From IMG/VR virus record IMGVR_UViG_3300027881_000007, positions 49,345 to 113,344 of that record: 64,000 nucleotides of DNA. One strand, 5' to 3'. Shown here piece by piece: positions 4,213 to 49,359 of this stretch; position 1 is the stretch's first letter; the number at the start of each line of letters is the position of its first letter. Origin of the DNA: a virus. A program made the position numbers and the translations under genes. The notes beneath the pieces were generated by a model that ran no database searches, was not told where the DNA came from, and saw nothing but the letters and a program-made list of their open reading frames with translations.

Positions 4213-4417
4213 CTTCCCCTTTAGTTAGTCCTTTCGCACTATCTATAGCTAATTGCTTAACCTCATCTGGAGACAACCTTCTACCTATTCTCCCCTCTAT
4301 TGTATTCATTTGTCTATAAACGGGATTGAAAACTTCGCGATATGTATCGCACGGCATATCACAAGTAGCATGAACTATACAACCTTTACATATTATCTCG
4401 ACGACTTCTTCGATCAT
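4199..4417 (-). CDS. Cys-cluster protein, CxxCx5Cx3C family
   Basis: CKGCIVHATCDMPC. Confidence 0.65.
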   Translation of the reverse strand: MIEEVVEIICKGCIVHATCDMPCDTYREVFNPVYRQMNTIEGRIGRRLSPDEVKQLAIDSAKGLTKGEDDGY

Positions 4418-4425
4418 TATACTTC

Positions 4426-34993: not shown

Positions 34994-35362
34994 ATGTATC
35001 ATTATCTGGTTGGATTAAGGATCAACGACCGTAAAAGTTTTGAAGAGGGAGAATTAATTTATCATGTTGATTTTGTATTTGACTACACAGAAGAGGATGT
35101 TGAGAACGTTAAACTTACAGCATCAGCAATGCAGAATGAAATGTGGCCAACCACAGGAGAAGAGGCGGCCCGAATATTTGGTTCTGCAAGAATGCTTAGT
35201 CAATTTCATTTCATGAGCTATAGAGCAAGGTTAAATGAGATTACTGTTTGTCACTTTCACACCGACTTTGAATTAGACCACGAATGGTTCACAATCTTCT
35301 TTAGAACAAATGATAAGGAATATTTGAAAAAGAAGATCAATGAAGCAAGGATAAAATTCTAG
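34994..35362 (+). CDS. hypothetical protein
   Basis: GAGG RBS; 122 aa. Confidence 0.6.
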   Translation: MYHYLVGLRINDRKSFEEGELIYHVDFVFDYTEEDVENVKLTASAMQNEMWPTTGEEAARIFGSARMLSQFHFMSYRARLNEITVCHFHTDFELDHEWFTIFFRTNDKEYLKKKINEARIKF

Positions 35363-35595
35363 TCGGAAGAGAGATTTCATCCTCTCTGAAAAAAGGGATA
35401 AATATGTTAATCAATATGAAAAAAGTTTTTGAAGATGTAATAGGTAAGCATGTAGGCACAAAAGTTGAAGTGACTACTATTGACATTCAAACCTCAAATA
35501 CTTGGAAGGTCGGCACTACGGACCATGGTGCTTTCACAATAGTTAAAGAAACACACGGGGGTTTCTCCATTTTTTAAGGAAGGGGAGAGGATGTT

Positions 35596-35898
35596 ATGTT
35601 TGAGAACATACTATATTCGGCAATGACTTTTGCCGCATGGATAACTGGACTGCTTATAGTGGCGGTAGGAGCAGTCATTGGTCTCCTTATTCATGTAAGT
35701 AGGATGGGTTATCAATGGTATATTATTCCATCCTTTGCGTTAATATGTGGAGTATTATTAATAATTGCCTCCACAAGAGTGTACTTAAAGTACCAGGACA
35801 AACTGGAGTTACTTACAATTGAGGCGGAGATTAATTTAGAACTTTCAGATTTTTACATCGAATCAGACGGAACATCCAAACCATCCCCCTATAATTAG
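35596..35898 (+). CDS. membrane protein
   Basis: two TM segments. Confidence 0.6.
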   Translation: MFENILYSAMTFAAWITGLLIVAVGAVIGLLIHVSRMGYQWYIIPSFALICGVLLIIASTRVYLKYQDKLELLTIEAEINLELSDFYIESDGTSKPSPYN

Positions 35899-35933
35899 AG
35901 AGGAGCAAATGCAAAAAGTCCTAATAACTCTAA

Positions 35934-36078
35934 TGGTAGGGGGTACGGCATATGGATGCTGAATGGCTTGCTACAAGTCATTCAAGATGGTTGGGAGGAC
36001 GCTTTTCAAATCGGCGGGTCTTTCCTTCTTTCAACCGCTGATACCGTCTTGGGTTCGATTCCCGCCCCCTATCACCCA
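35934..36078 (+). ncRNA. tRNA-like RNA with long acceptor stem and giant branched extra arm
   Basis: TGGTAGGGGG/CCCCCTATCA followed by C-CCA; 6-bp D stem; GGG-TTCGATT-CCC T arm. Confidence 0.6.
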
Positions 36079-36086
36079 GAGAAAAA

Positions 36087-36118
36087 GGTGCTCAGATTTG
36101 TCTGAGTACTTTTTTTTG
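36087..36118 (+). terminator. intrinsic terminator after the tRNA-like RNA
   Basis: GTGCTCAGA/TCTGAGTAC stem followed by a T run. Confidence 0.75.
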
Positions 36119-36131
36119 GTTCTCTAAACTA

Positions 36132-36144
36132 CCATATATATTAA
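36132..36144 (+). promoter_or_regulatory. putative promoter of the guide array
   Basis: CCATATATATTAA about 40 nt before the first edge repeat. Confidence 0.55.
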
Positions 36145-36182
36145 TTTATGGAGGTGGTTGTTGTATTTGTTTTTTTGTTCTA

Positions 36183-37883
36183 AGTGAACCAATGTTTAGT
36201 AAAAACCCAAATGAAACAAGTGAACCAAAGGAGAGGAGGCACAAACCCGATTAACCTCAGTGAACCAATTAGTTGGAGAAACCCAGTTTCAAAAAGTGAA
36301 CCAATGCGGATAACAAAACCTAAAGGTGAGAAGTGAACCAATGTGATTAATAAACCCAATAGGAGGGTAGTGAACCAGATGCTTCAAGAATCTAATGGAA
36401 CCTAGTGAACCAATATCTAGAAGTCCACCAATCGTTGTAAAGTGAACCATTTGGAAAGAGTATCCCATCTCACCCCAGTGTACCACGTGGTATAAGCACA
36501 ACCAATCAGTCTAGTGAACCACAATGGTGGAGAAAACCACAACATAGTTAGTGAACCAAACCTATGATAAAAACCCGCCGGATCAAAGTGAACCACAAGC
36601 CTGCAGTAAACCTCCGGAATGGAGTGAACCAGCGAAGCTCAGCAATCCTATATTTCTGAGTGGACCACAATGGTACAGAAACCCAAGATGTAACAAGTGT
36701 AAAAAACCAATCGGTGCAGGGCACCTCAGAGTGTACCAATCCGAAAAATTATGTGAACCAATAGTCTAGAGAAGAACCAGTCTTATAGAGTGAACCAGAC
36801 AACGACACTAATTCATTGTTGAGGAGTGAACCAATAGGAAATAGATAACCTGTTGTTGAAAGTGAACCAAACGTGTCCAAGAAAACCTTCCTTTCTTAGT
36901 GAACCACCGTGATTTAGGACACCTTAGGATCCAAAGTGAACCAGTAAAAAGCTAGTCACCCAGAGGGGTGGAGTGAACCTACGTTGGTTAGAAATCCAGT
37001 ACATGACAGTGAACCAATTAGTGTAAGAACAACCAAGAACAAACAGTGAACCATCTCGCCAGAGTAATCCAATTGCGCGGAGTGAACCAATCTAAGGAAG
37101 AAACCCAGTTTTGAACAGTGAACCAATGCTATCCAGTAAACCTGTGCGGAGGAAGTGAACCTGTTGAAGGAAGCGACCCTTGATGACCAAGTGAACCGAG
37201 ACGAGATAGATAACCTACGATATTGAGTGAACCCACCAGGGCTAGAAACCCTAGAAAGCATAAGTGAACCATTCCCCTGCAGTACTCCATCCTTGCCGAG
37301 TGAACCGAACCGAAGTAGAACTCCCACAAAATGAAGTGAACCCGTTAGCCTCAGTAGACCAGAATCAATGAGTGAACCTAAGGAGAGTAGAAACCTTCAT
37401 GTCTAAGTGAACCAATTTGCGAGAGTAACCCATTCCCCTTCAGTGAACCAACCCGGGGTAGAAACCCGACAAAGTCAAAGTGAACCGTGAGGCTTGAGAT
37501 AACCACCTCCTGTAAGTGAACTATTAATGAAACAGAAAACCAATCAAGGTCAGTGAACCAATAGAAGAAATGAAAATCAGATAGCACAAGTGAACCGTAA
37601 AATGTCATAAACCCGAAATATTTGAGTGAACCAGTCCTATGAAGCAACCGAGCATCGCTAGTGAACCAAGTTACGTAGTTAACCAAATTGCCGAGTGTAC
37701 CATATTGGTCAACCAACCCAGACAGAATAAGTGAACCTGGTATGGATAAATAATCTAAGACGATAAGTGAACCAGGACATCGAAGAAAAACCACGAAAAC
37801 TCAGTGGACCAAGATCGGATAGAAATCCAATCGTGAGTAGTGAACCATTTTGTGCTAGAAAAACCCGGAAGTCAAAGTGAACC
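36183..37883 (+). repeat. TIGR-type dual-repeat guide array, block 1 (about 48 edge repeats)
   Basis: AGTGAACC mostly every 35-37 nt; internal AGnnnnCC loop repeat; two variable ~10-nt spacers per unit. Confidence 0.92.
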
Positions 37884-37898
37884 ATCAAGGAGGTCTAA

Positions 37899-38174
37899 AT
37901 GAGCGAGATTGAATTAGGGCGAAAGGTAAGGGATACGGTTTCTGGATTTGAAGGAATTGCTGTTTGTCGTCACATTTATCTAAATGGTTGTGCAAGACTT
38001 AGCATTCAAGCACCCATTGATAAAGAGGGAAAATTGCCAGAGGTTGTCACCTTCGACGAACCGCAACTTGAAGTCATTGAAGAAGAGACAGGAATCGAAA
38101 AGTCAAAAGATGAAGGACCTGGCGGACCAATGCCCTATACGCCAACATCGCGTCATGAACCTAAAAGTAAATAA
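37899..38174 (+). CDS. small hypothetical protein embedded in the array
   Basis: AAGGAGG RBS right after an edge repeat; stop codon overlaps the next edge repeat; SH3/KOW-like G.KVRD.VSGFEG. Confidence 0.8.
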   Translation: MSEIELGRKVRDTVSGFEGIAVCRHIYLNGCARLSIQAPIDKEGKLPEVVTFDEPQLEVIEEETGIEKSKDEGPGGPMPYTPTSRHEPKSK

Positions 38175-38496
38175 GTGAACCCCAGTATATCAGAAAACCA
38201 ATACAAGCGAGTGAACCAGGGGGTTTAGAAAACCGGCAAGAAAAAGTGAACCGTTATCTAATAGACACCCAAGTGTCGAAAGTGAACCATTAAAGAAACG
38301 CGTGTAACCAATTCTTCGGAGTTGAGTCCTTACCGGCACGCAGAGTGAACCAGGGTTTTTTAGTAATCCGTTAGAAATAAGTGAACCAGGGTTCTACAGT
38401 AATCCACCAGTAACGAGTGAACCATTAACCAGAAGAAATCAAAAATAAAAAGTGAACCAGAAAGAAGCTAAAAACCCCAAAATCGGAAAGTGAACC
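38174..38496 (+). repeat. TIGR-type dual-repeat guide array, block 2 (9 edge repeats)
   Basis: AGTGAACC at 38174, 38210, 38245, 38281, 38344, 38380, 38416, 38451 and 38489. Confidence 0.9.
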
Positions 38497-38509
38497 GAGG
38501 AGAAGTGTA

Positions 38510-49333: not shown

Positions 49334-49359
49334 TTACTCCACTGTTGAGTTCAAAGTTC

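Follow-up and report, generated by a model that had tools for sequence, protein, structure and literature searches.

Organization of the TIGR-Tas locus

The window analyzed in this study is a stretch of 64,000 nucleotides (nt) from IMG/VR record IMGVR_UViG_3300027881_000007 (positions 49,345 to 113,344), and it lies within a 113-kb uncultured jumbo-phage fragment that CheckV rates as 36% complete. Sequencing runs containing the window sequence were seawater and marine-sediment metagenomes, and no RNA run was among them. The window carries a TIGR-Tas locus in which a gene encoding a protein of 91 amino acids (aa) is embedded in the guide array ahead of tas, and the origin and placement of this gene are the subject of this analysis.

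The 8-nt edge repeat AGTGAACC was present in 56 copies on the plus strand between positions 36183 and 38496. Forty-nine of these were exact, compared with 2.3 expected by chance in the window, and all exact copies in the window were confined to that strand and interval. Edge repeats recurred with a period of 35 to 37 nt, and a loop repeat of the AGAAACC type followed approximately 18 nt after each of them. This layout, in which edge repeats alternate with loop repeats and each ~36-nt unit has two short spacers, is that of dual-repeat TIGR arrays. The array is in two blocks on the plus strand. Block 1 (36183-37875) holds ~46 dual-spacer units, several of which are shared with the array of relative L008, and block 2 (38174-38496) has nine edge repeats and eight units. 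The self-target scan of the 113-kb genome, which required cognate spacers A and B on opposite strands, 7 to 14 nt apart, with no more than one mismatch each, returned six pairs compared with 4.3 for shuffled A/B pairings, and thus gave no self-target signal.

The gene (37899-38174, plus strand) lies between the two blocks. The edge repeat that closes unit 46 (37876-37883, plus strand) opens the gene cassette and is followed by ATC, the Shine-Dalgarno (SD) sequence AAGGAGG (37887-37893, plus strand), TCTAA, and the ATG at 37899, which places the SD 5 nt before the start codon. At the other end, the TAA stop codon occupies 38172-38174, and base 38174 also serves as the initial A of the edge repeat that follows (38174-38181), the first of block 2. 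The gene's signals are thus separated from the flanking repeats by 3 nt on the 5′ side and 0 nt on the 3′ side. An earlier note on this DNA had described both junctions and a similar start of tas, and each of these details was correct by sequence. It had also described the gene as inserted in register, which is true of the borders, both of which are edge repeats; the cassette, however, measures 298 nt (~8.3 units) and has no loop repeat at +18, so the 36-nt phase is not preserved. GC content was 42.8% for the gene, 41% to 43% for the array, and 40% for tas, so there was no compositional sign of recent import. The 298-nt cassette was also found, with identical junctions, in the independent Joint Genome Institute (JGI) contig L011, where the 5′ junction repeat and the SD are conserved, and in contigs of public runs X4 and X8, indicating that the layout is not an accident of assembly.

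Directly 3′ of the last edge repeat (38489-38496) lies GAGGAG (38497-38502, plus strand), the SD of tas, and the same layout was found in L008 and L011. Of 49 units, 12 had an SD-like tetramer in the spacer-A slot. A well-spaced start codon opening a real open reading frame (ORF) followed at just two slots, 37876 and 38489; the slot at 37154 had a suitably spaced start codon without a long ORF.

The tas gene (38510-39673, plus strand) encodes a 387-aa protein that scored 111.9 bits against NCBIfam NF052498 (TIGR_Tas_endo), for which the cutoff is 100. By phmmer its Nop domain matched TaTasR (9MTY) at 2e-10 and also SpTasH, and Foldseek matched its AlphaFold2 model (pLDDT 86) to 9mty at 7.6e-8 and to TasR and TasH structures up to an E value of 2e-5, followed by the IS621 recombinase. 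No HNH or RuvC nuclease domain was detected, and Pfam returned only a weak match to PF02371 at E ≤ 1. Only 37 residues precede the Nop model, and these are helical in the AlphaFold2 model, with no RuvC-like fold. Because of this short N-terminus and the lack of a detected nuclease domain, the protein is assigned to the nuclease-free TasA type, as the earlier note had proposed. It has ~90 extra residues inside the Nop domain. Near the C-terminus, Y376 aligns with the catalytic Y289 of SpTasH and is retained in 40 of 42 relatives; H385 is retained in 35 of 42 and is 2 residues off the Y289/H296 spacing of SpTasH. A homolog from a cultured phage was found in the jumbo Ralstonia phage phiRSL1 (13249-14187; H24/H25; 31% identity, 4e-41), annotated as a transposase or hypothetical protein.

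Upstream of the array, a terminator-like hairpin followed by T8 (36088-36117, plus strand), recognized by eye, ends the preceding unit; it escaped the consensus scan because 3 nt separate the stem from the start of the T-run. It is followed by a 15-nt promoter-like motif of the TAC[C/T]ATATATATTA type (36129-36143, plus strand), ~40 nt before the first edge repeat. Four plus-strand copies of this motif were present in the window (27782, 36129, 39756, and 60673) compared with 0.9 expected by chance. Each copy precedes either a gene or the array and often follows closely on a terminator; the motif is a candidate phage-specific promoter. Downstream of tas, a second terminator-like hairpin with a T-run (39702-39736, plus strand), also recognized by eye and conserved in L011, precedes the copy of the motif at 39756. 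Scans of 35900-39900 identified no plus-strand terminator by consensus and no plus-strand sigma-70-like promoter in the array or ahead of the 91-aa gene, plus-strand promoter sites being present only inside or beyond tas; the promoter scan used the sigma-70 consensus, which phage promoters may not fit. The 91-aa gene thus has its own SD and no recognizable promoter or terminator, and the promoter-like motif and hairpin terminators bracket the whole. The motif at 36129, block 1, the gene, block 2, tas, and the terminator at 39702-39736 therefore most likely form a single transcription unit, as judged from these sequence signals.

The 91-aa protein family and the array in relatives

The embedded ORF is a real gene, as indicated by a family match, conserved residues, a large family, and a predicted fold. 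Residues 1 to 82 of its product matched positions 5 to 86 of the 88-position phrog_16275 profile (E value of 8e-18), and all 14 residues that are invariant in an alignment of 27 homologs are retained. A profile search of 1.84 billion representative proteins returned 7,619 clusters (50% identity) at E ≤ 1e-3, of which 3,880 passed E ≤ 1e-10; many of the clusters are tandem two-domain proteins of ~160 aa. Most of the top-scoring family members (P0150-P0297) are tandem duplications of the barrel domain of ~155 to 170 aa, such as that of Phaeobacter phage MD18 (L002:3713-4276).

The AlphaFold2 model of the 91-aa protein (pLDDT 73) has a five-strand SH3-like barrel followed by a Gly-Pro-rich tail. 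VIA gave Z scores of 8.7 to the Spt5 KOW domain (4zn3_A) and 8.0 to NusG (2xhc_A), with Tudor, NdhS, and R67 DHFR barrels within 1 Z unit. Foldseek matches of the model to PDB structures were weak (best E value of 3e-3), and those in BFVD were phage hypothetical proteins. The protein matched no Pfam family at E ≤ 1, and hence not KOW (PF00467); a profile search of PDB sequences likewise found nothing at E ≤ 1, PADLOC and NCBIfam returned nothing, and the ESM Atlas returned only viral "hypothetical protein" clusters. The SH3/KOW-like character proposed in the earlier note thus finds support at the level of the predicted fold but does not extend to KOW family membership; the model suggests a common small barrel.

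Homologs of the gene were found in 23 cultured-phage records, including phages of Rhodobacter, the Roseobacter group, Rhodococcus, Pseudomonas, and Brevundimonas, where they sit among early, replication, or nucleotide-metabolism genes with no neighbor in common. No Tas was found in the five complete genomes of homolog-bearing cultured phages that were searched whole. Among 50,697 phage records, Tas homologs were present only in phiRSL1, which itself has no homolog of the 91-aa gene, and no record had both genes. At ~85 metagenome and viral loci with homologs of 43% to 66% identity, many of them on contigs of only 1 to 4 kb, there was no Tas match and no periodic repeat of 30 to 48 nt. No neighbor family was conserved around the homolog loci. 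In the opposite direction, none of 77 other phage TasA loci had a homolog of the 91-aa gene. A scan of viral contigs with P0002, the closest non-identical homolog among those known as proteins only, found only distant relatives. The gene and a tas gene or TIGR array co-occurred only in the window's own near-identical lineage. These results indicate that the family is not linked to TIGR-Tas, the first of two outcomes that the earlier note had named as together speaking against its interpretation.

Comparison with close relatives showed how the gene behaves within the array. Contigs L007 to L009 were identical over the stretch fetched, encode a Tas with 83% identity to that of the window, and include a complete 277-kb genome with terminal repeats. 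Their array is homologous to that of the window, with shared spacers, an irregular element, and an oversized structured unit, but it does not contain the 91-aa gene, and no homolog was found anywhere in the complete 277-kb genome. Viral-contig scans with Tas relatives of 90% and 72% identity returned only these known contigs.

The situation was different in L011 (2.7 kb) and in a 2.4-kb contig of run X4, both of which encode a Tas with 96% identity and carry the same cassette and junctions next to different neighbors. In these contigs the cassette lies directly after the homolog of unit 37730 and directly before the oversized unit, and the homolog of the unit that follows the gene in the window (38174) is found upstream of the gene. 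The gene is absent from a contig of run X6 (tas ~94% identical at the nt level), in which 37775 is joined to 38210 through 26 new letters that make up a regular 36-nt unit. Reshuffling of the array thus proceeds unit by unit and breaks at the 8-nt edge repeats; in this the gene acts like a single unit, the cassette lying between different guide units (L011 and X4) or being absent (X6). The gene and tas have diverged equally between the window and L011 (96.0% and 96.3% nt identity, respectively). Given this equal divergence and its presence, absence, and repositioning among relatives, the gene has been resident in the sub-lineage for some time, yet it is dispensable and, in the manner of a guide unit, has been moved or lost. 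The most parsimonious history is a gain that followed the split from the L008 lineage, and X6 is equally well explained by a loss in which the flanking repeats recombined.

At least ~8 guide units with recognizable spacers, including those at 36972, 37081, 37589, and 37730, are common to the window array and L008:4462-5980. The TIGR spacers here are inherited vertically and drift by point mutation, unlike CRISPR spacers, and many have passed down in this way between phages with a Tas identity of only 83%. The observations point to repeat-mediated recombination as a force shaping these arrays, with no sign of CRISPR-like polarized acquisition.

Origin of the cassette and alternative explanations

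The 91-codon ORF is probably an ordinary small phage accessory gene, captured as cargo and lodged in the TIGR array as an edge-repeat-bounded cassette of 298 nt. The earlier note had offered cargo captured between repeats as an option, and the option is borne out by a large family found almost everywhere without TIGR-Tas and by a gene that is present, absent, or repositioned among near-identical arrays. As cargo, the cassette would be co-transcribed with the array and tas. The array would evolve by gain, loss, and translocation of units at the edge repeats, and the gene would be kept, moved, or lost in the same way. Published tigRNAs start and end midway through an edge repeat and require full edge repeats (PMC12045711), and SpTasH cuts its own precursor autonomously through Y289 and H296 (PMC13421893). 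Maturation by Tas of the guides at 37839 and 38174 would cut at 37876-37883 and 38174-38181. These cuts would leave a monocistronic mRNA of ~300 nt, beginning ~16 to 20 nt ahead of the ATG and ending shortly beyond the stop codon, with the SD intact. As the Tas encoded here appears to retain the Tyr and His that SpTasH uses for cutting in mid edge repeat, guide maturation would probably have this effect, and excision of the mRNA by Tas processing is plausible by analogy. Autoregulation of both ribosome-binding sites by Tas, also raised in the earlier note, is pure conjecture.

Several points weigh against this reading. The junctions are strikingly tidy, with the SD 3 nt after one repeat and the stop codon overlapping the next, and they are conserved in two array contexts, which would also fit selection for functional coupling rather than passive carriage. 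P0002 (82% identical) is known as a protein only, without genomic context. Many of the homolog loci are short, and the metagenome-run contigs have low depth (~5-7×). The ratio of nonsynonymous to synonymous substitution rates between the window and L011 is ~0.6, calculated from only 10 differing codons, which are too few to show purifying selection within the lineage.

The tidy junctions are the starting point for a second explanation, in which the gene is cargo by origin and its placement is a selected regulatory design, Tas cleavage at the flanking repeats or Tas occupancy near the SD setting the level or timing of the 91-aa protein and of Tas. The layout with an SD after an edge repeat is common to both genes and has been kept for tas in three lineages and for the 91-aa gene in two array contexts; candidate processing residues (Y/H) are retained in Tas; and a link between tigRNA maturation and the translation of Tas has been put forward for intragenic tigRNAs (bioRxiv 10.64898/2026.09.09.750476). 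An unrelated embedded gene at another TasA locus (L161:7267-7818) likewise has its SD right after an edge repeat, although its 3′ boundary is not at a repeat. At other TasA loci, however, the distance from the last edge repeat to the start of the tas ORF ranges from ~26 to 100 nt, so the tight SD layout is not general, and tidy junctions may be a mere footprint of recombination at repeats. A selected design is unlikely. A broader proposal, which we rate as quite improbable, is that the cassette is wired into the system: cuts by Tas would release an mRNA with a short leader, and its protein would modulate TasA-guided repression or the host transcription or translation machinery, with arrays acting as recombination-prone, promoter-equipped landing pads for cargo. 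If so, output of both the KOW-like protein and Tas would depend on guide maturation.

It is very improbable that the 91-aa protein is a dedicated accessory factor of TasA, such as a KOW-like module that binds nucleic acid or RNA polymerase and works with the guide complex. The gene lies within the array, shares both strand and unit with tas, and has been co-inherited with it in two or more lineages to an equal degree of divergence. KOW-like and Tudor-like barrels often bind nucleic acids or partner proteins, and helpers are conceivable for TasA proteins, which are repressors (bioRxiv 10.64898/2026.09.09.750476). Against this, no homolog exists in the complete relative whose Tas is 83% identical and whose array is homologous, a contig with ~94% nt identity lacks the gene in its array, the 77 other TasA loci are without it, thousands of homologs occur in phages without Tas, and TasA has no clear association with other proteins (PMC12045711). 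The accessory role suggested in the earlier note thus found no support among homologs, close relatives, or other TasA loci.

Two independent arrays around an independent gene with its own promoter, or an assembly chimera, are extremely unlikely: split TIGR sub-arrays with non-array sequence between them are known from the Peromyscus TasA locus (PMC12045711) and phage promoters may deviate from the sigma-70 consensus that was scanned, but gaps of 3 nt and 0 nt to the repeats leave neither a promoter nor a terminator any space, unit 38174 is found on the upstream side of the gene in L011 and units swap sides between relatives, as expected of a single array, and identical junctions recur in independent contigs of several studies.

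The system belongs to TIGR-TasA, and the gene-bearing array is a modest variation. Like the dual-repeat systems described for TIGR-TasA (Faure et al., Science 2025, PMC12045711; Xu et al., bioRxiv 10.64898/2026.09.09.750476), it has a nuclease-free Nop Tas beside a long edge/loop array of ~36-nt units, is borne by a phage, and has candidate Y/H processing residues. It differs from them in having ~55 units, where 5 to 15 are most common (PMC12045711), in the protein-coding cassette bounded by edge repeats, and in the additional Nop residues of Tas. TasParB also places a second protein gene in the operon or array neighborhood of tasA, but it is a conserved, recurrent partner whose operon is kept across loci, whereas the 91-aa gene is unrelated to ParB and is not conserved with tas even within the clade. 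Intragenic tigRNAs and split sub-arrays (bioRxiv 10.64898/2026.09.09.750476; PMC12045711) likewise interleave guides and coding sequence on one strand and pose the same question of maturation versus translation; in those cases the guides lie inside the effector gene or non-coding DNA lies between sub-arrays, whereas here an unrelated gene lies within the array. Phage morons and other small accessory genes resemble the 91-aa gene in being small and scattered, with variable neighbors, their own SD, insertion into an existing unit, and patchy distribution among relatives. The insertion site is what sets it apart, namely a guide-RNA array with both junctions exactly at repeats.

In published loci, arrays flank tas or lie between tasParB and tasA, non-coding DNA splits sub-arrays, and guides occur within tas (PMC12045711; bioRxiv 10.64898/2026.09.09.750476). 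An unrelated protein gene set between edge repeats within an array did not turn up in text searches of these two main TIGR papers. Our survey of 77 TasA loci identified one further embedded gene, the 183-aa ORF of L161 (7267-7818), which lies between sub-arrays of 6 and 10 units downstream of tas. Within L161:7237-7990, a hairpin precedes the resumption of the array, and the ORF has no Pfam or PHROG match. Candidate embedded genes in L128/L130 and L163/L175 were rejected as false, their "second sub-array" consisting of low-complexity or spurious k-mer matches.

It is sobering that the 91-aa protein is a common phage gene and not a new Tas cofactor. The chief value of the locus lies in what the related arrays tell about unit-wise recombination at edge repeats. 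The origin, growth, and maintenance of TIGR arrays are openly stated to be unknown (PMC12045711; bioRxiv 10.64898/2026.09.09.750476), and the locus and its relatives provide a natural series of unit gain, loss, and movement at edge repeats in which one unit, 298 nt in length, carries a gene. The locus likewise offers a ready substrate for asking whether Tas processing yields translatable mRNAs and affects tas expression.

Structured and irregular elements in and around the array

Block 2 contains an oversized unit of 63 nt with a nested hairpin (38281-38343, plus strand), which is conserved close to tas in L011 (521-579) and L008 (5886-5943), with a length of 58 to 63 nt across the three lineages. 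The hairpin has 14 pairs, including one compensatory change from A-U to G-C, and its loop differs (UUCG versus CAAA). The oversized unit may be a structured RNA element within the array. The only Rfam match in 35000-40500 was a sub-threshold match to SNORD56 within the array (22 bits compared with a gathering score of 36, E value of 0.44), and no tRNA in the window was reported by ARAGORN. Immediately upstream of the array (35935-36078), where both programs were silent, there is a tRNA-like 3′ part with a T-arm of the GGTTCGATTCC type, which is conserved in L008 at ~4330-4420.

Two irregular elements of block 1 are also shared with L008. The second array unit (36219-36258, 39 to 40 nt) has an SD-like purine run in its spacer-A slot with no ORF after it, and its position and sequence are kept at L008:4498-4536. 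The irregular stretch at 36696-36752 (L008:4823-4877) combines an expanded edge-like box with a GC-rich hairpin and a half unit of 22 nt. It is near-identical in the two phages despite a Tas identity of 83%, and it is far better conserved than the neighboring spacers.

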